A stretch of 64,000 nucleotides of DNA from Eledone cirrhosa (Eukaryota): the NCBI GenBank assembly GCA_964016885.1, contig OZ024755.1, positions 29,202,001 to 29,266,000 on the forward strand. The letters are read 5' to 3'. Positions 4,973-63,249 of the stretch are shown piece by piece. The notes beneath the pieces are model-generated. The model did no database searches. It was not told where the DNA came from and worked only from the letters and a program-made list of their open reading frames with translations. The number at the start of each line of letters is the position of its first letter. The stretch's first letter is position 1. The position numbers and the translations under genes are program-made.

Positions 4973-5186
4973 GGAGGTGAGTTTTATTGTAGTACAATAA
5001 AGCAATGCAGATATCGGATAAGAAGCACTCTACAGTTTGTAGGACTGGAGTATACATAATATATAAGATCAAAAGATGGTTAAAGGAGTTCCATGTATTT
5101 TATTATGCGCATTTCAAAAACAACATATGTTGATTTAAAACTGCACTATCCACAAGTGTTTTTTAGCCTTCATATCATGTCCTCCT

Positions 5187-5255
5187 GTTTTATCTGATGA
5201 AAACACAAATACTATTGCATGATGATGTTTGTTTTTGAAATGCGCATAATAAAAT
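5187..5255 (+). ncRNA. Minimal type-I hammerhead ribozyme
   Basis: GTTTTAT-CTGATGA-(imperfect stem II)-GAAA-TGCGCA-TA-ATAAAAT; palindromic stem III, AUA site; same family at 35401 and 60283. Confidence 0.8.
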
Positions 5256-5630
5256 ACATGGAACTCCTTTAACCATCTTTTGATCTTATATATTATATAT
5301 ATATATATAAGTAGAAGGGATATTTAATTTGTTGGAAATACAACAAATATAAATGTTTATAACTGATTTAGAGCACTTGACGGAGTTCTGGAGTAAATAT
5401 TCAATAATATTAAATAAATGGAAACTATATTTATAAAACTAGATTTATTCTATTATATATATTTCTATTATATATATATAATAGAATAAATATGGTTTTA
5501 TAAATATAGTTTCCATTTATTTAATATCATTGTGTATATATATATATATATGGTCATCAAGTATCAAATTTGTAGAAATTTGTTTTTTTTCTACAAGTTT
5601 CTACAAATTTCATACTTGACGACCTGTATA

Positions 5631-5680
<50 letters not shown>

Positions 5681-5696
5681 GATAATTAATGGTATA

Positions 5697-5860
5697 ATAA
5701 TCGTTTCTACTTTTGGCACAAGGCCAACTATCACCCCACTGCATTACTGGTATTTTATTTTATCGACTCCGTAAGGATGAAAGGCAAACTTAACCTTGGC
5801 TAGATTTGAGCTCATATCGTAAAGGGCCGTAACTATATGCTGCAAAGTATGGCGTCCGAT
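5697..5860 (-). mobile_element. SINE family 1
   Basis: Matches consensus body and tail. Confidence 0.8.
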
Positions 5861-6370: not shown

Positions 6371-6624
6371 TTAATACGACACCGTAAATGTGTATATGCA
6401 CATACGCTCCGTGCTCTATGTATATATATAGTTAAAAGAATAGAGGTGTAACACACAAGTTATTATATATTGGTAAACGGAATAGAAAATGCTGACAAAT
6501 TGTTCACAGTTGAAAAATGGTTTAATTAGGAATAAAAGAGTATTAGTAATTGTATGGGTTAATATTCAGTTGTGGTTTTAAGTTTTTAAGTTTTTACCGG
6601 TTGCGCATTTCTAAATGGGTAGTT

Positions 6625-6669
6625 AGCCTTGATAAGCTTCAACCAAAGCGAAACAAGGCCTTGTCGGCT
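6625..6669 (+). ncRNA. Hammerhead ribozyme, U3-A8 core variant, copy 1
   Basis: AGCC-TTGATAA-GCTT caacca AAGC-GAA-ACAAGGCCTTGT-C-GGCT; all three stems pair, stem III is a perfect 12-nt palindrome. Confidence 0.75.
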
Positions 6670-6945
6670 TATCTCGCCTGTTTGCTGAGATCAAAGTAAG
6701 TGAATTTGTCACTACTTTAAAACAATAGCTTACGGTCTTCAAAATGCTTTTAATTAAGCATAAAGTGCATTGCAAAATACATTATATATACATCCATATA
6801 TATATATATTGCTATTTCAGAGCTCCAATTCTAATTTTTAATTTCTGCCTGACCAACAACCGCTCTGCATAATCAGCTCCTGATTATTTACTACATTTCT
6901 ATAAGAATATAACATCAGTGATCTCGGTAGACAGGAGGGGTAGTT

Positions 6946-6990
6946 AGCCTTGATAAGCTTCAACCAAAGCGAAACAAGGCCTTGTCGGCT
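6946..6990 (+). ncRNA. Hammerhead ribozyme, U3-A8 core variant, copy 2
   Basis: Identical core to 6625; stem I extendable by TGATCTCGGTAGACAGG / CCTGTTTGCTGAGATCA (with G-U pairs). Confidence 0.78.
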
Positions 6991-7127
6991 TATCTCCCCT
7001 GTTTGCTGAGATCAAAGTAAGTGAATTTGTCACTACTTTAAAACAATAGCTTACGGTCTTCAAAATGCTTTTAATTAAGCATAAGTGTATTGCAAAATAC
7101 ATTATATATACATATATATATATATAT

Positions 7128-7325
7128 ACAAGTGGAAGCTTAGTAAAATCGAAGCTTTGGCTGTGGGCAAGCAAAGTCGACCTACAATATGAATGAGTTA
7201 GCAAAGCACTCAATAAGGGTAGTTCCTTAGAATAATAACATACGTTTAAATAGCTTGACAAATTGAACATTGTGGTAGGCAAAACCTAACACACAATACC
7301 AAAGTAACGAAAAAAAACTAACAGG
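7128..7325. repeat. Interspersed repeat terminating in (TA)n (second copy 43405-43600)
   Basis: CAAGTGGA.G.TTAGTAAAATCGAAGC... near-identical at both loci, same end abutting (TA)n. Confidence 0.8.
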
Positions 7326-7370
<45 letters not shown>

Positions 7371-7752
7371 CGAAGGAAATGTGGTAATGAACCAGGTAGA
7401 CCATAACGCACCAAAGTACTCAATACTTAGGGTAGTAGAGTGGGTAATAGGAACGAGTAGGACCCCGACGGCTGAGAATATATATTATTATATATATATT
7501 CTATTTTTCTCTGGAAGAGATCTGCTATAATCAGATCTGGAGAAGGATGGGCTCCGCCAGGTTTAAAATACCCAAGAAATACCGTTTGTCAATACGGCGT
7601 CCCTACGGATCTATCAGGAGTTACGGGACCATACCATCTTCTATTATGAGAGAATGAGTCTCTCTATCAACATGTTTAAATATTCCTCCTTTCAATTATT
7701 CTAAGCAGTACGATAATGTTGGTTATATTCATATTTACCAATATAACCAATG

Positions 7753-9569
7753 CCGTGATTTCCCCCAATATAAGCCATGCCCCGAAAACAAGCCGTAGCA
7801 AAAATGAACGGCAAAAAAAAGAAATGGCCGGCTATGAAAATTATAGAAGAGGATTGTCTCTTAATGTAAAACTAATTGATAAGCGGGTGGTATAAGAAGT
7901 TTGTGGAATGCGCGGAAGTGAAAATATCGATAATGAAATTAACGAAAGGAAAGAGGGAAGTGCGTGCAATCAATATTGTTTATGCAAGTGCGGGTACAAA
8001 CCAGAAGTAATGGCTTATCAGTAACTTCGGGGGAGAAGATCATTTTCAGCCCTAGACAAGATGAAAGGAAGGAAGAGTTATACAGTCGAGTACAAGAAAG
8101 GAATTGTGGAGGAATCACTGGGCAAGAATCTTACTATTTTCTGCAAAGAAAAGAATCTAGATCTCCGAATGGTTCAAAGATGGAGAATGGACTACAATAA
8201 ACTCAGACAGGACATAGGGAAACGTAAGCGTGGATCTGGTCGACAACCGATATTTCTTGAGCTGGAAGACGCCATCTGTGAATGGATTGCTGAAATAAGA
8301 GCCAGAGCTTTGGTTGTTCACAGGGCTGATATTCATTTGCCCTTACAAATGCACTAGAGTTTGGTATAGTTCCAGAAGAATTCAAAGAATCCAAACACTG
8401 ACTGAATAATTTCCTTCAGCGATACGAATTTTCTCTGAGAAGATCGACAACACTGTTCAAACTGGACGACACTGAGATTATTAAACGTGCACTCGCATTT
8501 AAGTCTTTTGTTGATGGAATAGACTTTTCTAACTACCGTCTCTCCAACATGATTGCTATGGATGAAACAGCAGTGTTCATGGGTCAAAGCTCTCAATCTA
8601 CAATTGATCAAAAGGGTGCGTCGTCAATTTACATTCCATCCACTGGTTACGAAAGTGCACGAGTTACGTGTATCTTGGCAATTCGTCTCGACGGAAGCAA
8701 AGCCCCACTTCTTATCATCACTAAAGGCTAGAAAGATACAATTGAACGCGTTTCAGGTATCTGTGTTTTGGAAACTGAAAAGGCGTGGTGCACACAGGCA
8801 GTTTTAAGGAAGTGGGTCGATTTCATGCTGCCATTGGTTTTGCGTGGAACCCAAAGAGGTCTCATAGTCTGGTATTCAGCCAGCACGCACCGCGCCAAAG
8901 ATATAAAGAACTTTCTTGGAGAAAGAAGAATCGATCAAATCATGATTCCCCCAGGAACGACCGCCTATCTCCAGACTCTTGACATCGCACTGAATAAACC
9001 ATTCAAGAACCATCTGCGCATGGAAATAAATGACTACATCGAAAACAGAATGGCGAGAAATGAGCAGGAAATTTCGTAAAGCCCAGCCTTCAAGAGATCG
9101 TGACTTGGGTGGGATATTCATGGAACAAAATCAGATAGCTGTGTCATGAATGCACTACGAACAGACTATCTTGATAAGAACTCTCCATTCAATTCGACCT
9201 CTATCGTTCAACATGAAAGACTAGGGACGAAAATTCTGCAGGCAATTGAGTCACAGGAAAATTCCACATGAATCATTGTATCCACTGATTTGTAAAACAT
9301 GACATTCCAGAGCAGGATGACATGATTATTGTCGAATAAATTAGTGGATAATTTCGCTCATGATTTTTTGAATTAAAGGGTGTGTTAATTTTTAATAAAT
9401 TTAATCTTTCAAATAAACGTTGCGCGTAAATGCCGATCATTTAGCGAATTTTTAATTTTCGGTTTCGTAATCTCGTTTTTACTCCCCCGAAAATAAGCCG
9501 TAGTGGTACATTTCGGTACATTTCAGTAAAAATTAATATAAGCCATGGCTTATAATCATGGAAACACGG
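7753..9569 (+). mobile_element. Pogo/Tigger-type (DDE_1) DNA transposon, near full length, defective
   Basis: Imperfect TIRs CCGTGATTTCC...TATAAGCC / GGCTTATA...GGAAACACGG followed by TA; internal transposase remnants. Confidence 0.88.
8061..9339 (+). pseudogene. Pogo-family transposase pseudogene (BrkDBD-like + CENP-B-type HTH + DDE_1)
   Basis: RKSYTVEYKK, GSGRQPIFLELEDAICEWI, IAMDET, SASTH, IPPGTTAYLQTLDIALNKPFK spread over frameshifted/stop-interrupted ORFs. Confidence 0.88.
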
Positions 9570-10630: not shown

Positions 10631-11965
10631 AATAATTTTTGAGGCCAGCCAACACGCTCGCAGCGTTACCGCGGGTGATGGCGAGGCTGATGTGCTGGAA
10701 AAACCAAGCGCCCTCACGAGCATCACCAGTTACCTCTGTTAAGCGAGCTGCTAGTGAAGATAGGAGTCTCGCAGTTCGATTCACCCCCCCCCCCCCCCCA
10801 AACGCCTCGAACGCCACAGACTGGAATATGCAGTTGGCTGACAGATCACCCCTGTTGAGGTAATGACATTCTGTCGTCATTACTACAACAGAGGTCCGAC
10901 GAGCTTTTTATGCCAGAGTCGGGCCACGTGCTTTTTAGCCATGGCACCTCCACGACCACTTTGCAGTGACAAGGTGTGGGGCCATAGTGTCTATATGCTT
11001 CAGCTTGTACCCATGGGAGGTCGGGTACTCTGTATTACTGCGTGACGCCAGAGGTCACGGTCGTGTGTCATCGCCTTGAGAGGTGTAATTGGGTAAGGTC
11101 GGCTTTTATCCCCTCAACCCATGTCTTCTTGGGTCTCCCCACTCCGCGGTTTCCATCGACTTCTAGTGCTCTGCACCTTTTTATGCAGCTGTCATCCTTC
11201 ATACGCATCACATGTCCATACCAACGCAACCGCCTCTCCTGCACACAGCATTTGATTCCTCTTATGCTCAGTCTCTCTCTCAATTCATTTATGCTTTGCC
11301 GTTCGCGCATATTACTATTACACATCCATCGGAGCATGCAGGCTTCGTTTCTTTCTAATCTACGTAAGTCTTCCACCTTCAGCGCCCAGGTCTCACTACC
11401 ATGTAACATTGCTGTTCGGATACACGCATCATACAGTCTGCCTTTCATTTTGAGGGAAAAGCCTTTTGCAGCTAGCAGTGGCAGTAATTCCCTGAACTTC
11501 TTCCATCCCGTTCTTACCCTAGTTATTGTACTTTCTGAACACCCACCTCCACTGCTAATTCGGTCACCTAGGTAGCAGAAGCTGTCTACTGTTTCTACAG
11601 AGCCCTCCCAGAGATTGGTGGTACTTGTTTCCTGTGGCTGTTTGCTGCTTGCTGTCCCAGCACAGCTGCTACATGTGAAGCCTACATTCTTAATTAAGCT
11701 TCCTGAGATCCCGCTACATCTCTTGTGTACCCATTGTTTGCATTTGGGGCAGAGAATGGAGTTCCTATCTACTCCTTTCCTACATACTGAGCAAGGCCAT
11801 TTCCCTGAGGGGATCTGGGTTCTGTTTTCTCGTCTACTTACAAGGACCTTAGTCTTTGTCATGTTGACTTTGAGACCCTTTCTTTCTAGTCCCTGCTTCC
11901 AAGTTTGAATTTCTTGTCTAGTTCTACCATAGATTCAGCTATAAGTGCGAGGTCATCTGCATACT
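10631..11965 (-). mobile_element. 5'-truncated RTE-clade LINE (RT C-terminus plus probable 3' UTR)
   Basis: YADDL at ~11950-11965; ORF 11068-11862 with KTKVL, FCYLGD, LHGSETW, RRLRWYGHVMR, GRPKKTW; boundary at 10631 approximate. Confidence 0.88.
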
Positions 11966-12519: not shown

Positions 12520-14524
12520 AAATCACACGGAGCCAGGTTGGACGAGTACTGAGATTTTACCAGCGATGTTTTTCTCTGTCAGGAGCCACCTAATACTCAG
12601 GGCGTTGTGAGCCGATACGTTGTTGTGGTGAAGCAACCACGAGTTGTCCTCCAAGAATTCTCGACTCTTTTGGGGGTCTGAACAAAGCAAAGGCCACAGT
12701 ATCTCTTTGTTGACATTCTGGTTGATCGCCTGGCCCTGTGGCAAGCACTCTATATGGACGATGTCTCTCACATTGAAGAACGCGAGAGCAACATGAGTTT
12801 GTCCTTGGGCTTCGAGTGACCTGCTTTTTGGGGCCACGGCTGCGCCGGACTCATCCATTGGAGGCTCTAGCGCTTGATCTCCTGATCGTACTCGGAAACC
12901 TATGACTCATAACTGGTGACGACTCTCCCCAGTAAGTCTGGTTCGGTTTCAAGATGCTGGAAGATGTCCTGTCACACCTGCACGCACCACTCCTTCTAGT
13001 CATCATTCAGCAGCTTTGGTCCCATCTTCGCGCAGATCTTCTGAATGCCCAAATTTTCGGTGATAATCTTCCAGACGCAGTCACGGTTGTTCATGCCCAG
13101 CTAACTTGAGATCAGTCAAACAGTTAGCCAATGGTCACCTCACATCCCCTACCTCCCGCACTCAACGTTGGCGTCAGTCCTGTTCGTTGAAGGCCTTCCG
13201 CTCCTGGGGTTGTCTTCCACGTCCTCCCACCACTCTTTGAACCTTTTGTGCCACTCGAAAACCCGTGAGTGCGATATTTTCTCTTCTCCGTTCACTTGCT
13301 ACATTATTCTGACCGCTTCAGGCAGAGTTTTTCCCAGCCAGACCAAAAGCTTCAGGCTGACCGCTTCAGGCAGAGTTTTTCCCAGCCAGACCAAAAGCTT
13401 CAGGCTGACCGCTTCAGGCAGAGTTTTTCCCAGCCAGACCAAAAGCTTCAGGCTGACCGCTTCAGGCAGAGTTTTTCCCAGCCAGACCAAAAGCTTCAGG
13501 CTGACCGCTTCAGGCAGAGTTTTTCCCAGCCAGACCAAAAGCTTCAGGCTGACCGCTTCAGGCAGAGTTTTTCCCACCCAGACCAAAAGCTTCAGGCTGA
13601 CCGCTTCAGGCAGAGTTTTTCCCAGCCAGACCAAAAGCTTCAGGCTGACCGCTTCAGGCAGAGTTTTTCCCAGCCAGACCAAAAGCTTCAGGCTGACCGC
13701 TTCAGGCAGAGTTTTTCCCACCCAGACCAAAAGCTTCAGGCTGACCGCTTCAGGCAGAGTTTTTCCCAGCCAGACCAAAAGCTTCAGGCTGACCGCTTCA
13801 GGCAGAGTTTTTCCCAGCCAGACCAAAAGCTTCAGGCTGACCGCTTCAGGCAGAGTTTTTCCCACCCAGACCAAAAGCTTCAGGCTGACCGCTTCAGGCA
13901 GAGTTTTTCCCAGCCAGACCAAAAGCTTCAGGCTGACCGCTTCAGGCAGAGTTTTTCCCAGCCAGACCAAAAGCTTCAGGCTGACCGCTTCAGGCAGAGT
14001 TTTTCCCACCCAGACCAAAAGCTTCAGGCTGACCGCTTCAGGCAGAGTTTTTCCCAGCCAGACCAAAAGCTTCAGGCTGACCGCTTCAGGCAGAGTTTTT
14101 CCCACCCAGACCAAAAGCTTCAGGCTGACCGCTTCAGGCAGAGTTTTTCCCAGCCAGACCAAAAGCTTCAGGCTGACCGCTTCAGGCAGAGTTTTTCCCA
14201 GCCAGACCAAAAGCTTCAGGCTGACCGCTTCAGGCAGAGTTTTTCCCAGCCAGACCAAAAGCTTCAGGCTGACCGCTTCAGGCAGAGTTTTTCCCACCCA
14301 GACCAAAAGCTTCAGGTTAGTTTGTGGCTCTGTGTCCATCAATCGGCGGCCTAAACTTGAAGAGCTATTAACAAAAGCACGTGAAAAACATACAAAGGTC
14401 GGAGAGAGCTGAAATCGCAGCTATATACTCCCTGCATATTACATCAGGCAGTGACACAACGCTAATCCCTACACCACTCATAGCTCACGCACCACACCAT
14501 GTTATGTTTCTGAGATACCTTGTA
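12520..14524 (-). mobile_element. Decayed mariner transposon
   Basis: Minus strand MDTEPQTNLKLLVWLGKT, RVFEWHKRFK, degenerate VTSYES*VSEYDQEIKR (ITGDESW motif), WLLHHNNVSAH; TIR-like TACAAGGTATCTCAGAAACATAAC at 14501-14524. Confidence 0.85.
13309..14316. repeat. 48-bp tandem array, 21 copies
   Basis: Unit CTGACCGCTTCAGGCAGAGTTTTTCCCA(G/C)CCAGACCAAAAGCTTCAGG with one variable position. Confidence 0.97.
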
Positions 14525-16284: not shown

Positions 16285-16777
16285 CATTCACAGACGGTAG
16301 TATTTGAATAATATATTATGGTCAACTTTTTCCCAACGACACCCACTTCTAGGACTTGTCACTAATTTAGTTCTCAACCAAATTTGATCAGATTTTTTGC
16401 ACTAGAATGGCCTCATTCCAGGCTACATTTTGGTGTAAGGAATTTGAAATGTGGGTCAGTAGAAAAAAAAAGTTCCGCTAAAGTATGTGTGGTCAAGTAG
16501 TGGTGGATAAGGCCCCTCATCGACTTTGACTCATCATAACCTTTTAAATGTCCTATCTCAGTAGATAGAACTCGATAAGCTGAATCGAAATTTGTCAATA
16601 TTGAAAAGATTGGTGCCATAGAAATCGAGTTGTGTGACTTTAAGTGACGAAATTAGATGAAGAGTAACGCTAAGGGACATAAATTTAGTATAAATTCATC
16701 GTAGATGTACTAAGTAGTTTCCCTTAATTATAGTTATTCACAAAAGGCTTGATGGAATTTTTGGAGATCCCCCCAAA

Positions 16778-17765
16778 ATGGCATATCCTTTTGGAAAAAT
16801 GATTCTTCTTTTGTTTGGTGATTTGATGCCATCTGTAAATGAAAAACCAGTATTTTCTAGAATTTCATCATATTATGCCAAAAGAACAGAAATTGGCATT
16901 AGTGGGCATTCGTTGTGGAAATACTTTCAATATGATGAGCTAACCATTAATATGAAACAAAAAGAAGACAAAGACAACTATGTTGATATTTTGGGAAGAA
17001 TTAGGATTGGTTCCCCATCAGACTCTGATATAAGCATTCTTCAAAAAAGATGCCTATTTCCTAATAGAAAAGAATCTGTTGAAGAAATTGCTAAAAAAAT
17101 TGATTGAATTGTATTCTATTCCTGAATTAAAATTTGTATGCATTTTACTTTTGAATGAAGCTGTTGATGAGTTGAATAATGAAATGATTTTAAAAAATGC
17201 AACATGAATGCAGTGAAACTTGCTGCAAAAGATTCTGGTATGAGACAAGTAAATGGAAGAAAAAAAGAAAAATGTTGAAAAAGGCAAAAACAAGAAAACT
17301 TCTGATACTGCTGGACTAGAAACTTTGCTAAATGTTGGAATTGGAGCAAGAGTGATGTTGACACGAAACATTGATGTAGATCAAGGCTTTATGCAATGGT
17401 GTTATTGGACAGTTATTGAATTAATTGGGAATGGAAGCAATGTTGACAAAATGTTGGTGTCTTTTGATACCAAAAAGGACAAACCCAGTTCCATTGGAAG
17501 AGTTCAAGCAGACTATGAAATTTCTCCTGGTGTTTTTGTCACCAGAACACAATTTCCATTGTCTCTTGCTTACTCTATAACAATTCACAAGTCACAAGGA
17601 ATTTCTGTGGATGGAATAATTGCTGATTTAGGAAATCAGATATTTTCTGATGGTCAAGCTTATGTGGTTCTTTCAAGAGCCAGAAAACTTTGCAATGTGT
17701 ATCTCTGTGACTTTGATCCAAGATCATTGATCGTGGTTGACAAATCTGCATGGGAAGAATTTACG
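16778..17765 (+). pseudogene. Helitron-type PIF1-family helicase fragment
   Basis: PFG..ILLLFGDL, LTINMKQ, ILGRIRIG, VGIGARVMLTRNID, RTQFPLSLAYSITIHKSQG, FSDGQAYVVLSR; frameshifted, intronless, 3' end interrupted by a SINE. Confidence 0.85.
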
Positions 17766-17784
17766 ATCTGCCTTCAAGTTCCGC

Positions 17785-18424
17785 CGAGGTTAACTTTGCC
17801 TTTCATCCTTACGGGGGGGGGGGGATAAAATAAAGTACCAGTAATGCACTGGGATAATTGCTGGCCTTGTGCCAAAAAAGTAGAAACAATTATTATTAGT
17901 GTGGATTAGCAGTATCAGTAGCGGGTCGGACGCCATGTTTTGCAGCATAGAGTTACGGCCCTTTACGGTCTGTGTTCAAATCCCGCCGCGGTTAACTTTG
18001 CTTTTTCATCCTTACGAGGTCTATAAAATATAGTACCAGTAATGCACTGGGATGATTGCTGGCTTTGTGCCAAAATTAGAAACAATTATTATTAGTGTTA
18101 CTATTATTACGACGCTATCAATTATATAACATTCCGTTAGCTTTGCATTTCAGTGCACTCCATATTTAGCATCAACAATCAATATGAATGATGCAGTAAA
18201 ATGTTTGACTCTTTACTCAATATTATTCTACATAGAGCGGTGAATTGGCAGTATCGGTAGAGGGTCGGACGCCTTGCTTTGACGCATAGAGTTACGGCCC
18301 TTGCCATTCTGAGTTCAAATCCCGCCGAGGTTAACTATGCCTTTCATCCTTACGGGGTCGATAAAATGAAGTACCAATAATGTACTGGGTGATTGCTGGC
18401 CTTGTGCCAATAGTAGAAACAATT
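17785..18424 (+). mobile_element. Three SINE family 1 copies
   Basis: 17785-17890, 17899-18088, 18237-18424; last has TSD ATTATTCTACATAGA. Confidence 0.88.
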
Positions 18425-20102: not shown

Positions 20103-20983
20103 ATACACGAGTGTCGACTGAGATGTTCATAGGCTGACAATGACGGATTGATGCTAGACCTGTGAAATCTTGCATGCGTTAATTTTAACAACTCGTCTTG
20201 TTTCTTTCCAGGGAAAATCTTGAAAAATAAACGTCATTTGGTCATTCCATGAGAGTATCTTAGTCAACCTATGAAGGAGTGATGCTAGAGCTGTGGAATC
20301 TGGCATGCATTAATTTCAAATCTTCTTAATTGCATTGCTTCTTTCCTGGGTCTATGCTGAAAATTAAATGGCATTTGTTGGTTCCATGAGAGTATCTTGG
20401 TCAGCCTATGAAGGAGTGATGCTAGTACTGTGAAATCTTGCATACATTAATTTCAACTTCTTATTAATAACTGCATTGTTTCGTTCCAGGGACCATGTTG
20501 AAAAATAAACCTCATTTGATCGTTCCATGAGAGTATCTTGGTGATTTTATGAAGGGCTGTGAAATCTTGCATGCATTTATTTCAACTCTTCTTATTAATA
20601 ACTGCATTATTTCTTTCCAGGGACTATGTTGAAAAATAAACCTCATTTGGTCATTCCATGAGTGTATCTTGGTCAGCCTATGAAGGAGTGATGCTAGAGG
20701 TGTGAAATATTGCATACATTAATTTCAACTCTTCTTATTAATAACTGTTTTATTTCTTTCCAGGGACTATGTTGAAAAATAAACATCATTTGTTCATTCC
20801 ATGAGAGTATCTTGGTCAGCCTATGAAGGAGTGATGCTAGAGGTGTGAAATATTGCATACATTAATTTCAACTCTTCTTATTAATAACTGTTTTATTTCT
20901 TTCCAGGGACTATGTTGAAAAATAAACATCATTTGTTCATTCCATGAGAGTATCTTGGACAGGCTATGAATTTTAGCCTCGTA
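20103..20983. mobile_element. Tc1/mariner-like MITE containing ~6 tandem copies of a 130-143-bp unit
   Basis: Ends TACACGAG...TTCATAGGCTGAC and G.CAG.CTATGAA...CTCGTA are inverted; unit GATGCTAG..TGTGAAATCTTGCAT..TTCCATGAGAGTATCTTGGTCAGCCTATGAAGGAGT. Confidence 0.65.
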
Positions 20984-32570: not shown

Positions 32571-32648
32571 ATATATATTATATATATATATATTACATAT
32601 ATAGTGACGAAACATAAGTCAATTGCATGAACTCATAATCCTTTATTT

Positions 32649-32704
32649 ACTGCTATATATATTTCGATGATAGCCATTGAATGGATATGACCTCATCAGG
32701 AAGT
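32649..32704 (-). ncRNA. Hammerhead ribozyme, inverted copy of 32782
   Basis: Reverse complement of the 32782-32837 motif with one substitution each in stems I and II. Confidence 0.7.
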
Positions 32705-32781
32705 TAGTCAGTTCTTAGATATGCCAGCTCTGTGTGTATGGTGTTGATGGTATCAGAGCCTTGGGATATAAGAACTGACTA

Positions 32782-32837
32782 ACTGCCTGATGAGGTCATA
32801 GCCATTCAATGGCTATCATCGAAATATATATAGCAGT
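32782..32837 (+). ncRNA. Minimal type-I hammerhead ribozyme
   Basis: ACTGC-CTGATGA-GGTC ATAGCCATT c AATGGCTAT CATC-GAAA-TATATA-TA-GCAGT; palindromic stem III, AUA site. Confidence 0.85.
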
Positions 32838-34269
32838 AAATATATTCAGATATTGATACATATTGATGAATTCAGATATTGATACATTTTGTTTGAAATA
32901 TATTCGTTTTCATTGGTACACGCTCAGAAAATTTCAAAGAGTTAAAAGGAAGATTAGAATTAAATTAGAAGAATTCATTGCTTTAAATAGGTATCAAGAC
33001 ATTCAATCACGCAGAGTAAGAAGGTGCATTTGTAATAAAATCAATTAGTTTCAAATTTTGAAAGGAGTCTACATGAATCGACTTGGCAAGAAATTAATTT
33101 ACCAAACTGAAAGAGAGATTACATTGATTCATTTGGGATTTGTACTAAGAACATAAAAATCTGTAACTAAATACCGTCAAGCATTTTATTAGATCCCCCC
33201 CACGACCCTACCAATCCACCATCCCTGTTTTCACTAATATGAGGAATACAATATCTACATGGGTTTCAATGGAACGACCTTTATGCCTTTATGTTTATTG
33301 GAAATACATAATATTCACAATATCCATTCCGAACTTTTAAGATTTCAGTCTTCAGACTAGAAATAATTATAATCCTATGCAATTCTTGTTAAACGCTTCA
33401 GTTTAATTACTTCTACAAGAACTTAATTAACACTATTTATGTCCCTAATTTAATTCTAATAATGTTCTGTCGATATTAGTTATTATAATTACTATGGGCA
33501 TTATTTATTAAGCTGTGCACATTAATTAAATCCTGATCACAAACATTTGGTGTATTACAAAGACCAGCGAAATCTAACTATCAGGTTAAATATTGTCATT
33601 CCCATTATACGACTATAAAATAAATGATATACGAGAATTTATTGCCAAATGTATTATAGCCTGGCATGACAACATTCCTTTATACATTTACAGTCTTTTG
33701 ATGAAAACAATTAACGATATTTATGCAGTTATATATTGTTTTCTTTGTGTGTATATACTCGACACTGTCATGAACCAGATTGCTATAAAACGTAGTTAAT
33801 CGGCCCAATAACTAAGTATGAAACATATATCTATTGATCCGGTTATGCCATACCCATGTGTGGTTGGGGAGGATAGCACGCTTTCTATTATACAACATAT
33901 GCATGTAGTGCAATAGTGTTGCCTGTCATATTAAATGATCTTCAATTTCCGGTTTGTTTCTACACATCTATAGATGCTGATGTTTATGCAGCATAGCTGA
34001 ATGGTGAAGACGTTCAGTTGGCATTCATTACGACATATATTTGATCCTATTATACAATTGCCGTTTATTTTAAGCTCCGGTCAAGCCAAGCCGTGTAAGT
34101 GAAATTATTTAAACAGAAAATGTTTGAAAGCCCTTTGGAAGAATGGTATCTCTAATTCAACGGTAATCCTTGTAGCCCAGTATGTGAGACCGGCAGTAGA
34201 ATACTCAGCCCCTTCCGTTGTACATTTAAGTAGGTCTCGAATTTTTCATATATATATATATATATATAT

Positions 34270-43331: not shown

Positions 43332-43402
<71 letters not shown>

Positions 43403-46094
43403 TACAAGTGGAGGTTTAGTAAAATCGAAGCATTAGCTGTGGGCAAACAAAGTCGACCTACAATAGGAATGAGTTAGTAAAGTACTCAATAAGGGTATGT
43501 CCTTAGAGTAATAACATACGTGTAAATAGCTTGACAAATTGAACATTGCGGTAGGCAAAACCTAACCACACAATACCAAAGTAACGAAAAAACTAAAAGA
43601 AAAACGAGATGTCCTACACGACTGCTATATAAACAGTATAAGTTTCTGTGGCTATGAAGAGCAAAGTTTTTAACTCAACACATTGCACCACGGCAGAGTG
43701 TTTTCTCATATAACTTTGGGCTGAGCGATGTTATCTGAGTATACGGCTGTATACTGTCAAATGATTTATATTTTCATGTGTGAAAACTTAATCCCTGCCC
43801 CGATTTTATATCAGTGTTTGATCATTTGGTGCCTTGCTGTTCCCTATTATCGCAAACATTTGAACAAAGGATAAATCTTGAAAGAAGAGTTATTCCTCCC
43901 TTTCTCATATCATTTTTGTTGAACTTGCAAATATGACATGGGTACAACAATTCTTCCATAGATTAAGTAATTAAGCACATTAAATTAAAAGATCTTTATC
44001 TTTCTTCTCGTGTTACTTTGGATTTACGTTTTCTGAAACCAAGGCAATATATGATTTAAGAGTTTCAAAACATTATATTGTACCAATTGGATTTTGATTT
44101 GTAAAGATAGGATTAAATGTAAATACGCACATTTATGCTTTATTGAAATAAATCCTATATCATAAAATGAAGCATGTTGTCATACTGTCTGCCTATACAA
44201 AGTGAATGAGGATTATAACATAAAAAGAGGGTATTGGTGATATTTACTGATTACATGGCAATTGAAAAGTCACACTAAACCGCATATAATTTGAGGTGGT
44301 TTCCCAGGCGCCAGCATGAAATGAAATATATTTTTAAAAAAGGCAGATTATACATTTGAACAAGATAAGCAGACTCCACTACACAATCCTCTATCTGGAC
44401 GTCTGTTGATTCAAATAAAACATTAGGGAAATCGCAAAATTCCGTATAGAAATCAATGACTATTTTTTTTTATTTAAATATTTTGTTTTTCTTGCGTCTA
44501 TTATTGACATTTCGATAATTTCAAAATGGATTTTTACATAATTCAAATTTCAATATTGGTTTGATGTTGTCTAGGATTCCTTTCCGGTAATATGAAAACT
44601 ATTAAAATCGTTACTAACTCCCCAATGATTCCTATCGCTTGAATCCCATATCAATATAAATATTAATACGGTATATTTAAATATTTATTAAAATTAATTT
44701 TAAATATCTTAATTATGTTTCGGATCTATTAGCATCTTAATGATTGTCATTGATTGCCATTCCTGGGTTTCGGTTCATCAATAAATGGACAGAAATGGGT
44801 TTTTATTGTTGTTTTTCTATATGAATATTATACAAACAATTTGCTATTTATACCCACATCAACACTAATCAAGCAATCCGGTATTAACTCTCAGTTTCAG
44901 CAATTCTCTAAGTGCAGTGTAAACCACAATATGTAACTTTTGTTTCCTTTTGGTGCGACAACTAAAAGCTCTGGATAATATTGGATCGTCAAGCATGAAA
45001 TTTGTAGAGATTTCTTCTTTTTCTACATTTTCCTACAAATTTCATACTTTATGACCCCATATTATGGTTCTAGAAAATAACTGTTTTCTTCGACAGGTAA
45101 ATAATTTCCCTTCACAGACATTCGAAATGACACACTCTTTGTTTACAACTGGATTCATACAGACCAGAATCTGAATAAATTTGATTTGACAGTGATTAAT
45201 TTATTGAAACACAAGACTGAAAGCATTGTCGAAAACTAAGAGTTTTTAATTCAGGAAATAAAAGAAAGTAATAAATACAAGAACCAATTACGTCCGGTGT
45301 TCCTCCTATACTGCTACCCACTGGTTTTCATCCGGTACAGAAATTAAACAGTGAGTTACAAATGAGGAAATATATATATATGCTGTCGTGCTACAGTTTA
45401 AACGGTTGATGACTTATATATGCTCAATAATTAGTGCATTGCAGTACGTTTGCCAATGCTCTGAGCTTTGGGGGTAAACTTTGCCTTCTCCGTGTGAGAT
45501 TGATAAAGAAGTTACCAGTCTAAGATGTTAGATTGGCGAAATATTTTGAGTGTCCTGTGGTATAATTTACTTTGAGCTCGGACGGCAATGTTTCAGATGA
45601 TACAGTCGACGTTCCCCTAGAAAAAAAAAACATTACTCAAGCTTGTGCATTAGGGTGGGTCTTTCCAGATACAGATTCATAGTAGCACGTTACACCCGGA
45701 ATCACCAAGCTTAGCTAGAGGCAAAAGCATGGATACACATTACCATAGAAGGCTGTGGCATTCGCCGTTTACATTCCGTTGTCCATCCTGGCTCACTTTC
45801 TTCACAGTTCTTCATCAACCATTAATATATTCACCAGAAAATTACCCTGGACGATATGTTTATACTCAGAGAAACATTGGTATCCTTGTGTCTATGCGAG
45901 AAACAAATATTTATTTAGCTCGAAATATGCAGAACAACGTCGAAGCCTTACGTCTATAACTATTGTGCTTTATTCAATGTGTTATTTATGAGATATAAAT
46001 ATTGAACCTCAATCCTGTTACACGACCAACTGTAAGTAGCATTCATATATCTTTCAAATCATAGTCCATCTTCTTAACATTTACTCTCCGAATA

Positions 46095-48439: not shown

Positions 48440-48669
48440 TAACAGATAAGAGTTTAAGCAAAGAATCGCTGCTTTCACCCTTAACGGGATTATTATTATT
48501 GTTGTTACTATATATATATACTATATATATTTAGTCCAGAATTAGCCGTCGAAACGGCTGGAGCTCAGCTGTCGGGGTCTTACTGGTTCCTATTACCCAC
48601 TCTACTACCTCAAGTATTGAGTACTTTGGTGCGTTATGGTCCACCTGGTTCCTTACCACATTTCCTTCG

Positions 48670-51605: not shown

Positions 51606-53686
51606 GTCTTTTATTTTATTCACTCTTGTGTCGCCATTTATGTAATCGGCAAACTTGTGTGTTTATCTTTATGTTTTAATCGTCTCCTTTAAATTTACAC
51701 TGATTTTGTTTTCTCTTTGAAGACAACAGTAAATCTGTTGACGCGTAGTAAAATAGTTCATTAATTCTGTTTTACTATTGTAAACTTCAATATATTATTG
51801 CAACAAATATAGTTAATTTTGCTAACACATAAAATGCAAATAAACTTAAAGAGAAATTCTCATACAATTTTTTTCTCTAATCATATCAAAATATGTTTTT
51901 GTCTTTTCAATTGAAGCTGGATGTTAATTAAAGTTTGATAACAAAATATAATTATTAAAGTATATTTGAGAATTTAAAAGATAAAAATAAGATGTTCTGT
52001 AACAGCGGTAATATGGAACTTAATGCAAAGTTATATAATATATCCAGTACAATTGAATTGGTGTAGACCCCCGTCGGTTTCGAGGATATATGTTAGAGTA
52101 ATTCAATTAAAGGAACAGTCTGTACAAGATATTAACATGTAAGTGGTACAGTACAAAGACTTGTACTCTTAAGGTTATTCTCAGATAGATTTAGCGTAAG
52201 CACGTACTGTCTATTCGACTGTCTTTCAAACAATTTCCATTCATTCAATTTCACTTTGTAGATATGCCCAATGCTGAAACACCCCTACACGGCATTGGAC
52301 TTGGCAGAGTTTAATGAGAAAGGACAGCAATGTGTTCAGCTATGGCGGAACCACATCTAACCAAGTTTTGTAGCCGACATTCTTGTAGAAACGATAGGAA
52401 AGAAGTTGAACTTTGCAGATGTAGGTAGAAACTAGAATATGTTAAAAGTCACCTTCCGAAGATGCCATGCAGTGGGAATTAACCCACTGCATAAGGACTT
52501 CGGAGAGTCATCATGTTGCTTCCAGTTTAGAGATTGAGAAACATTACGCATTTATATATCAGAAAAAACATATGCGATGTAGGGTAGGTCTCAACATATG
52601 AATACATGCTCTTCAAAACAGTGTTACAAATAGGTGAATTTTCAGATTATATAGCTGTGAGTTATTGTCGATAGTACAAGAATATGGCGATAAAGAAAAC
52701 AAGCAACATGCAGGAGATGCATTTTGTTGGTTTGAAATCGTTGCGAAACGACCGGAAACAATCTCCGCCATATTTCAGAATCAATTGTTTAATGCTATTC
52801 TGCTTTTCTGATATTTTCTAGCAGGTATTGATAATATCATGGCTAATCTATTAGATGTGACATTACCGGTCTGTTGGAAAGTTTTTACAGTTGGTCGAGT
52901 TTGTCATTAGATGTTTTTTTTTCTTACTAGTATACACTCACTGTGTATTGTAATTAGGATCGTAATATTTCAACTGGTTCATTAGACGTGGAGGCTTGCA
53001 GAGAATGATGTCTAAAATGAATACGATTTAACGGAAGATTTTATCTCTAAAAGGAAAGAGGAAACGTGAAAGAGACGAAATTTGGAACGAGATAAATACA
53101 ATGTCAGGCAAATTATAAATTTGTTGATCGTATGTTAGATTCTCTGTAAACTTTTCTATACTAAAACACAATCTATTTATTTTTTATTTAATATCTCGTT
53201 GGGCATTAATTGGCAGAAGCTCACACTTCTGATCTTACTAAATATCTTAAAAATTGATGTATGTATGTACAACCGTAAGGAGGTAGATTTCTCTGGGCTT
53301 TGAAAAATAGTTCATTAGAAATTGATTGTATATCAGAATAACTGTTTAATTACGGATACGGTTGAATTTGTCCGTGAATTTACAACCGAAAGTCAATGAT
53401 TGAAATGCTCGAAAATGATAAAGCTTCGATACGGTAATTATTGCCTGATTGTTTTTTTTTATGCTTCGAACTGACAATGGATAATAAGTATCAAGAGAAT
53501 TTACACAAATTGTTTCGGTTCCTATGCGTCCATTCATGCGCTGAGTTCGATTTTATTTCTACATTCGAGTTTACACATTAATTATAAATAATTGATATAA
53601 TCTGTGTTACCACCAATCAAACCTTTGGGAATTATGACTGTAGCAGAAAGCTCTGCCTAAATGCTACATTCAATCCGAAATACATT

Positions 53687-54415
53687 TGTCCCTACTATTA
53701 AGTGGTATCACGTATCTCACGTTGTTCCTACTATTGGTGGCATCATATATCTCATGTTATCTCTACTATTGGTGGCATTACATATCTCATGTTGTCTCTA
53801 CTATTGGTGGCATCATATATCTCATGTTGTCTCCACTATTAAGATATCACATATCTCACGTTGTCCCTACTATTGGTGGCATCACATATCTCACGTTATT
53901 CCTACTATTGGTGGCATCATATATCTCATGTTGTCTCTACTATTAAGATATCACATATCTCACGTTGTCCCTACTATTGGTGGAATCACATTTCTCACGC
54001 TGTCCCTACTATTGGTGGCATCACATATCTCACGTTGTTCCTACTATTGGTGGCATCACATATCTCATGTTGTCTCTACTATTGGTGGCATCACATATCT
54101 CACGTTGTCTCTACTATTAAGATATCACATATCTCACGTTGTCCCTACTATTGGTGGAATCACATTTCTCACGCTGTCCCTACTATTGGTGGTATCACAT
54201 ATCTCACGTTGTTCCTACTATTGGTGGCATCACATATCTCATGTTGTCTCTACTATTGGTGGCATCACATATCTCACGTTGTCTCTACTATTAAGATATC
54301 ACATATCTCACGTTGTCTCTACTATTGGTGGCATCACATATCTCACGTTGTCTCTACTATTAAGATATCACATATCTCACGTTGTCTCTACTATTGGTGG
54401 CATCACATATCTCAT
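53687..54415. repeat. 34/35-bp minisatellite, about 21 units
   Basis: Unit ATCACATATCTCACGTTGTCTCTACTATT(GGTGGC|AAGAT). Confidence 0.95.
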
Positions 54416-61279: not shown

Positions 61280-61923
61280 CAATATATAACAGTTTTACAA
61301 ATAGCTTTGACGTACCCTTTTAAAATACGATATATATATAACCAAATCACATTGAAGAAGACCAGTCGATAATCTGCATCCTCACTATATTTACATTCTT
61401 CGATCACGCCGTGCCTCGCAGAGAATACTAATTGTTTATGTCTGTGTGGAATTATCTTCAAAATATTGAAAACTAAACATACTTTGTATCACGTCATATG
61501 TCTAATAAAGCTGCATGTAAACATGCCTTTTTCTAATTTCGATCAGATTTGCCACGTTAAGAGATTCTTGATCTCAATATTTTATATCACTAATTGTATT
61601 AGTTAATTACATCTTAAGACACATTTTATTAAATTTCATCCCATGTTAAAATAAATTCTGTAGCACACTTCAACTTACTTGACGTATTATAATGGTATCA
61701 TATACAATTTCTAGTGTTTGGAAGATTAATAACGCCGGAAATTTTCATATCAGTAATCTATATACAATACTCTGGCGAAAACAGCTCTACTTATGTGTAG
61801 TGAAGAAACTATCCTTGATATCAATAATTAGTGGTGACCTGTCTCGTCAATAAGGGATCTAATTAATTTTTTTAAATGCCCTGAGTTAAGCGATCTAAAA
61901 GCTGTCATTATAAATATAGAAAA

Positions 61924-62523
61924 CGGTGGATTGGCAGTATCGGTAGAGGGTCGGACGCCATGCTTTCCAGCATAGTTACGTCCCTTTACGATCTGAGTTC
62001 AAATCCCGCCGAGGTTGACTTTGTCTTTCATCCTTACGGGGTCGATAAAATAAAGTACCAGTAATGCACTGAATAATTGCTGGCCTTGTGCCTAAAGTAG
62101 AAACAATTATTATATAGAAAACGATGGATTGGCAATATCAGTAGATGGTCGGACGCCATGCTTTGCAGCGTAGAGTTACGCCCCTTTATGATCTGAGTTC
62201 AAATCCCGCAGAGGTTAACTTTGCCTTTCATCCTTACGGAGTCGATAAAATAAAGTACCAGTCACGCACTGGGGTCGATTTAATCGACTTTCCCCTCCGC
62301 CAAAATTGCTGGCGTTGTGTCTATATAAGAAACCATTTAGATTGGCAGTATTGCTAGAGGGTCGGACGCCATGCTTTGCAGCATAGAGTTACGACCGTTT
62401 ATCATCTGAGTTCAAATCCCGCCGAGGTTAACTTTGCCTTTCAACCTTACGAGGTCGATAAAATAATGTACCCGTAATGCACTGGTTTAATTGCTGGCCT
62501 TGTGCCAAAAGTAGAAACAATTA
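61924..62523 (+). mobile_element. Three tandem SINE family 1 copies
   Basis: ATATAGAAAACG repeated at 61914, 62112 and 62526. Confidence 0.88.
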
Positions 62524-63249
62524 TTATATAGAAAACGGGGACATTCTTTTGTTTCATAAATGTACTTGGATCGAGATTAAGTCATAGATTTTGTTTTCAA
62601 CTTGCTGTTGTAGAAGTGTAACAGAAACGTGTTTGATTGTTAACGATATTTTGATTGCTGATTATAGTATTTATACTTCTAAAACAGCTTTAAATATGTG
62701 ATAAATGATTTTAAAAGGAATTGTTGCCTCTTGAAAGTAGGAATACTGGAGTGATTTCCAAGTGAGATTAATAAAAACAATTATTTTCTTTCATAGAAAA
62801 TATAGGATCAAACCATTGAGACATGATTTATAAACACAAGAATGTGAGGAGGTCTTGTACCATAAATTATAAAACTACATCATCGAATCACCAAGTCTAA
62901 ACTTATCTACTGTAAAATTATTGTTATGTTTTTCCTCGTACAAACAAGAACCTATCTCATTTTCAAATGTCAGGTTTTGATAAACCTTCTAATTTTTCTA
63001 CCCATAAGTATATTATATGCAGTCTTCGGGATAATGTTTTAGCTGAGTGAACAACATAGTAACAGTAGAGTGGTGGTGGTAGTGGTGGTGGTGGTGGTGG
63101 TGGTGGTAGTAGTAGTAGTGGTGGTTTAACTCTTTTGATACCAAACTGTCTGAAACTACTCCAGATTCTGTAAAACAAAAATGTTTATTTTATGGCGCAT
63201 ATATTTATGTAAAGAAAAACAAAAGAAAACTATCATAATATTGTTATGT

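Follow-up and report, generated by a model that had tools for sequence, protein, structure and literature searches.

Two type I hammerhead motifs lie 321 bp apart on the forward strand of the window, the 64-kb stretch of DNA analysed here as a whole, with cores at 6629 and 6950 (sequence reading and descriptor scan). Motif 1 (6625..6669, +) has U3 at 6629, A8 at 6634, and a predicted cut after 6665, and motif 2 (6946..6990, +) has U3 at 6950, A8 at 6955, and a predicted cut after 6986; Rfam in E-value mode also retrieves both. Motif 1 is composed of helix I (6625-6628/6666-6669; sequence and descriptor scan), the core TTGATAA (6629-6635), helix II (6636-6639/6646-6649) with a 6-nt loop, GAAA (6650-6653), a 12-nt palindromic helix III segment (6653..6664), for which folding predicts 6974-6985 as the partner, and U16.1-C17 (6664-6665). 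In motif 2, the corresponding elements are helix I (6946-6949 with 6987-6990), the core TTGATAA (6950-6956), a helix II of 4 bp with a 6-nt loop (6957-6970), GAAA (6971-6974), the 12-nt palindrome (6974-6985), and C17 at 6986. Both motifs carry U3-A8 in place of C3-G8, and the remaining core bases are canonical, which bears out the original prediction of two TTGATAA copies 321 bp apart with every other core base kept; the perfect palindrome it described for helix III is likewise present in both copies.

The architecture is that of a type I hammerhead, having three helices around the core and an open helix I (descriptor scan, alignment, and Rfam alignment) together with a Watson-Crick 3-8 pair, UGA, GAAA, and an NUH cut site, and self-cleavage after H17 is predicted for both motifs. 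By folding and alignment, the complete second hammerhead with its extended helix I spans 6920..7013 (+), where 6920-6937 pairs with 6996-7013 in a 16-bp distal stem with several G.U pairs and an internal loop near the core. This internal loop and the 6-nt loop II match Hammerhead_HH9 in part in the Rfam alignment and are candidate loop I-loop II elements. The claim that all stems are intact is correct as far as the core helices go; the long helix I, however, has no upstream arm in copy 1 of the kind seen at 6920-6937.

The two predicted cuts delimit a 321-nt unit (6666..6986, +) of 35% GC, the longest ATG ORF of which is 42 aa. The locus consists of 1.6 such units arranged head to tail, truncated at the 5' side and ending at a TA run. 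Copy 1 is the 5'-truncated 0.6 unit (6617..6808, +), which starts abruptly at 6617, comprises the hammerhead and the 3' part of the unit, and ends in an internal TA-rich run (6783..6808, +) that forms the head-to-tail junction, the same joint being found in sequencing runs X1 and X14. The part of the unit that occurs only once in the window follows (6809..6937, +) and includes the 5' arm of the extended helix I (6920-6937), while a hairpin predicted by folding stands after helix I (7014..7039, +; also 6693-6718) and the terminal TA run occupies 7103..7128 (+), into which the 3' end of the element probably merges at ~7113. Identity between 6617-6808 and 6938-7128 is 97.4% over 192 nt, and none of the five differences falls in the motif core, one of them standing opposite an unpaired helix I base in the alignment. 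Before the TA run, the copies differ at three sites, one of which is a family polymorphism (an extra A), a pattern that copying one fresh circle in a single round would not create and for which a mixed multimer template or subsequent mutation accounts better. On its 5' side, the array continues 49 nt beyond the first cut site, so the template crossed the cut junction, either as a circle or as an uncut multimer. At base 6894, this copy departs from practically every family contig in X1 and X4, and this private change suggests that the insertion is not brand new. No target-site duplication is evident at the insertion, and the 321-nt unit is absent from the Tandem Repeats Finder output. Folded as a circle, the unit has a minimum free energy (MFE) of -75.9 kcal/mol (z -4.2), and 0 of 150 shuffles were as stable. 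Beyond the terminal TA run lies an unrelated repeat, which recurs at 43379-43592 behind a TA run; this repeat family (7129-7315) abutting (TA)n is possibly a retroelement end without a hammerhead, and the same may be said of another repeat abutting (TA)n at 7369-7476 (also near 48564, 22583, 60490, 496, 25304, 34248, and 26824).

The motif is far above chance expectation. A relaxed descriptor yields 0.13 chance U3-A8 matches per window (60 block-shuffled windows), and a strict descriptor, with all three helices of at least 4 bp, gave no U3-A8 match in 60 block-shuffled windows. The segment 6925-7015 folds with a z of -3.67, with 0 of 200 shuffles equally good; for copy 1 by itself, the fold is no better than that of its shuffles (z -0.49). 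At the gathering score, Rfam returned no match anywhere in the 64-kb window. In E-value mode, the two copies provide the two best E-values, both to Hammerhead_HH9 (E 0.008 and 0.023), with scores of 21.6 and 20.2 bits against a cut-off of 52. Their scores thus place them below the gathering threshold for the Rfam hammerhead families (CL00010), so standard scans miss both copies, as had been anticipated for consensus searches faced with this variant.

The wider family was surveyed in four of 21 listed sequencing runs, which were compared with 6809-7112 at 80% likeness, with differences listed from 3% of depth; contigs lose rare variants and variants near contig ends. The public run X1 contains 1182 family contigs of 80-100% identity, distributed as 227 at 99% or above, 300 at 95-99%, 452 at 90-95%, and 203 below 90%. 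The 321-nt unit is therefore multicopy and diverged, these figures being contig counts and not genomic copy number. The head-to-tail joint 7112->6809 is present in X1 and X14. One X4 contig is ~82% identical, with 24 differences over 135 nt. Words of the unit were found in 14 rows from 11 studies, which does not in itself amount to a spread across species, as X4 (two contigs) and X14 (one contig) stand at a depth of 2-4 and could be trace DNA. Run X15, consisting of raw reads of which about 1 in 100 was read, gave 0 matching reads, and exact-pattern scans of metagenome contigs gave 0 matches.

Thirty variable positions were listed in X1 and the two X4 contigs, and none of them is position 3, position 8, or another conserved core base; the chance of 0/30 among 13 core bases is ~0.27 by hand, which is statistically weak alone. 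No C3 or G8 variant above 3% of depth was seen in X1 or in either X4 contig, a divergent loose end in the survey retains TTGATAA, and no C3-G8 family member was seen in the runs compared, nor was any within-family 3-8 covariation observed. As no change at position 3 or 8 exceeds 3% in the 1182 X1 contigs, U3-A8 is fixed and not a product of decay, and, judging from these sequences, it is older than the spread of the family. The independent C3U and G8A changes expected of neutral decay were thus found nowhere above 3% in X1 or the two X4 contigs when the family was checked for TTGATAA. In helix II, T6959A and A6968T (15 and 16 X1 contigs, and together on one X4 contig) keep the pair, as read from the contigs a compensatory swap. 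At paired positions of helix I, 6-7 of 8 transitions keep pairing, depending on the register, a wobble pattern that is not significant (P 0.24; ~0.07 by hand for 7/8 in the other register). Helix III varies at its centre alone (6979-6980), through deletion, insertion, C>T, and C>A, and this centre is varied in a large share of copies; the polymorphism indicates that a perfect palindrome is not required. A three-contig loose end implies a putative compensatory 6977/6982 swap with an 11-nt palindrome.

Predicted folding favours a dimer. The unconstrained MFE structure of the tandem segment 6617-7013 (-108.2 kcal/mol) pairs the two palindromes over 12 bp and contains a complete hammerhead at the 6665 site, made from the copy 2 core and the long helix I. 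The full double hammerhead in the same segment lies at -107.9 kcal/mol, within 0.3 of the MFE, with a share of 0.11 (0.009 with more flank), and monomer folds in the tandem transcript are 9.5-17 kcal/mol worse. The dimer fold beats the monomer fold in 9/9 modelled variants, its share ranging from 0.001 to 0.33, and it drops to P 0.001 with family-major helix I bases. The active fold lies 4.8 kcal/mol above the MFE in isolated copy 2 (share about 1e-4) and 4.9 kcal/mol above it in the circle (share 4e-5), the core being buried by pairing between 6947-6952 and 6975-6980. This predicted inhibitory helix of the monomer (6947..6980, +) has a pair probability of 0.95 and buries U3, U4, and G5. The gap between the active monomer fold and the MFE is 1.3-9.4 kcal/mol across all modelled variants, and the helix III covariant, with a gap of 1.3 kcal/mol, largely lifts the block. 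The idea of U3 alone as the origin of this off-switch is supported in part: when a C3-G8 core is modelled, the share of the active monomer rises only 13- to 20-fold, to a value still at most 0.001, so U3 contributes to the block without accounting for it entirely. Loop-loop contacts and Mg2+, both of which favour the active monomer, are not part of these nearest-neighbour energies. On such energies, double-hammerhead cleavage is predicted in multimers and predicted to be off in the monomer and the circle, in line with the proposal that a palindromic stem III favours cleavage in the dimer. At the locus, the 6665 cut is predicted to be favoured over the 6986 cut, which is less likely because it relies on the truncated copy 1; release of a whole unit from the locus would require the 6986 cut.

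Seven further minimal type I hammerheads, all with canonical C3-G8, were found in the window at 5194(+), 22274(+), 32787(+), 35409(+), 60345(-), 61271(-), and 63659(+). They mostly lie 70-190 nt upstream of (TA)n runs, with a (TA)7+ run at most 200 nt downstream in 6/7, compared with 19.7% of random positions (binomial 3e-4), and five of them fall in two related families. Inverted hammerhead-bearing segments adjoin a direct copy at 5051-5301 (73-nt arms, 99%) and at about 32645-32843. Inverted 5' segments are described as a hallmark of Penelope-like elements (PLEs), whose ends target TA (PMC8557442). The pattern of hammerheads, TA runs, and inverted segments matches PLE ends, suggesting that PLE-type elements are present in the genome, and the seven motifs are likely truncated Penelope-like pseudo-LTR ends of at least two related families. 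By alignment, the 321-nt unit and the local PLE-type ends share no sequence beyond TA runs. The window also harbours a very abundant SINE-like repeat of ~165 nt (5693-5860 and more than 25 other places; ~85% identity between copies), a 48-nt unit repeated 21 times with 98% identity and open in three frames (13309-14316), and tandem arrays at 20201-20970, 53686-54414, and 61914-62537 with periods of 143, 35, and 213 nt. Transposon remnants are located at 8732-9076(+), with DDE_1 (E 1e-9); at 16718-17825(+), with Pif1/UvrD helicase fragments; and at 11071-11934(-), with a PHD-bearing LINE-like 3' ORF that we take to be RTE-like. The repeat landscape gives a tentative cephalopod-like impression.

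The observed motif, tandem unit, many diverged copies, fixation of U3-A8, and compensatory change in helix II are best explained by the insertion of 1.6 copies of a 321-nt tandem unit that is non-coding, multicopy, and likely a non-LTR retrozyme, with family-wide U3-A8 and predicted double-hammerhead cleavage (probability about 0.6); that the unit is a retrozyme of some cleavage mode is held with considerably greater assurance. Non-LTR retrozymes are described as tandem repeats of 170-400 nt (about 300 bp) with less than 45% GC and type I hammerheads, expressed as circles (PMC7229834). The tandem unit here, at 321 nt, falls within about 170-400 nt, with a type I hammerhead in each copy and its joint in other runs, and it is non-coding, with 35% GC (<45%) and a longest ATG ORF of 42 aa. 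Its family is multicopy (1182 X1 contigs), and its monomer is highly self-paired (circle z -4.2). Every sequence-level retrozyme feature examined is thus present, and the unit has likely spread through small circular RNAs, with mobilisation by Penelope-like elements also likely. Of the two origins first suggested for the tandem, a retrozyme fits better and a tandem pLTR less well.

For such a retrozyme, the two 12-nt palindromes of a multimeric transcript would pair with each other and give the active fold, whereas in the monomer or circle the palindrome segment would pair back onto the core and block it, so that the circle would be protected from re-cutting. Double cleavage would free a 321-nt RNA, as in known retrozymes; a host RtcB-type ligase may close it, and a Penelope-like reverse transcriptase/endonuclease may copy the circle for more than one round into TA-rich targets (PMC7229834). 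Such copying would produce a 3' end in a TA run and a truncated 5' copy. A bolder form of the reading, in which an animal retrozyme lineage that is actively spreading is wholly U3-A8, is missed by C3-G8 descriptors and Rfam, and has a segment that switches between neighbour-copy pairing (on) and own-core pairing via U3 (circle off), is advanced only tentatively.

Other explanations share part of this evidence. A satellite-like repeat amplified as DNA, with U3-A8 fixed by a founder copy and a ribozyme that is weak or dead, is improbable in view of the compensatory helix II change and the pairing-preserving changes in diverged copies, the G.U-rich 16-bp stem, the circle z of -4.2, and a pair of core changes that complement each other exactly while the rest of the core is unaltered. 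In its favour, the core-conservation statistics are weak, fixation alone cannot show activity, and tolerance of hammerhead 3-8 exchanges is reportedly context dependent, going by the title of Przybilski and Hammann 2007. The partial tandem and the TA target are PLE-like (PMC8557442), and U3-A8 is documented in PLE hammerheads, with about 1300 in Schistosoma mansoni (PMC4209133), which could point to an autonomous Penelope-like element represented here by truncated pseudo-LTR ends, its ORF having been lost from the insertion; retrozymes may indeed derive from pLTRs (10.64898/2026.07.22.740005). There is little to recommend this origin, however, as two further runs contain the 321-nt head-to-tail joint, the motif is of the canonical type, unlike the seven minimal motifs of the window, and Pfam gave no RT or GIY-YIG match in 147/172 window ORFs of 62 aa or more. 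An autonomous Penelope-like element was rejected for the same Pfam result and for the lack of an ORF between the repeats, and a PLE minimal hammerhead, with a long helix II, an extra base after A9, and little helix III as described in PMC4209133, was rejected because the motif is canonical-type instead.

A closer rival is the same retrozyme with a ribozyme that, like those of coral and mussel, is efficient in monomeric form, the palindrome then forming a 4-bp helix III with a tetraloop. It would have to be reconciled with an active monomer fold 1.3-9.4 kcal/mol above the MFE in all modelled variants and with G6978 and C6981, which pair only in the dimer if the centre is 1-2 nt and have no listed variants, and we consider it unlikely, even though helix III exceeds the 1-2 bp that characterise dimer-dependent motifs (PMC4209133) and loop bases vary within the family. 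The canonical-type loop II and the helix I internal loop align to HH9 and could offer tertiary stabilisation outside the energy model, and invertebrate retrozyme monomers cleave at 0.1-0.8/min (PMC7229834).

Under the preferred reading of a U3-A8 retrozyme cleaved as a double hammerhead, the hammerhead, dimer cleavage, and U3-A8 are each already known, and the novelty would reside in a U3-A8 core shared by the whole family and in the predicted switch between on and off pairings. Several natural U3-A8 hammerheads are described as active in vitro (PMC3088659), and the published cases (PMC3088659; PMC4209133) agree with the view of U3-A8 as a tolerated natural covariant. Dimer cleavage via a palindromic helix III has been reviewed (PMC6765202), and a 2026 preprint derives non-LTR retrozymes from PLE ends (10.64898/2026.07.22.740005). 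In the open full-text literature, outside which supplements and subscription papers lie, no retrozyme was found to be described in which U3-A8 is fixed and the motif is canonical-type. According to PMC7229834, the hammerhead remains accessible in the majority of animal retrozyme circles, so that their block must be other than self-pairing. The present family is predicted to be a compact example in which blocking by self-pairing goes together with activation in the dimer, and, if true, a purely RNA-encoded switch would explain why animal retrozyme circles are not cut again by their own ribozymes. The finding shows that U3-A8 can be the core of an entire multicopy retrozyme-like family, so hammerhead censuses restricted to C3-G8 or to Rfam thresholds count too few of these elements. 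The nature of hammerheads or retrozymes is unchanged by the finding.

Among known systems, Hammerhead_HH9 (RF02275, clan CL00010), a dispersed amniote family, resembles the motif in its type I topology and in the alignment of helix II and the core, but the copies score 20-22 bits against its cut-off of 52. The minimal hammerheads of PLE pseudo-LTRs, including the U3-A8 family of Schistosoma mansoni, are similar in U3-A8, a palindromic helix III region, a tandem layout, and predicted dimer activity (PMC4209133). The present motif differs from them, as described there, in a 4-bp helix II without an extra base after A9, a helix III of at least 4 bp, and a long helix I with an internal loop, and in its 321-bp spacing and absence of an ORF; the Schistosoma U3-A8 variants are, moreover, mostly single motifs (PMC4209133). 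The metazoan non-LTR retrozymes of coral, mussel, and axolotl (PMC7229834) share with the unit a short non-coding multicopy tandem of ~300 bp with less than 45% GC, one type I hammerhead per unit, and a self-paired predicted circle, and the axolotl hammerheads cleave best as dimers (PMC7229834), the mode predicted here. The unit is set apart from them by its U3-A8 core, by a 12-nt palindromic helix III where theirs is described as 1-2 bp, by the TA run inside it, and by the predicted self-pairing block of the circle, which PMC7229834 describes among animals only for some mussel circles. With the natural U3-A8 hammerheads (PMC3088659), it has the same core covariation in common, here fixed across a multicopy tandem family.
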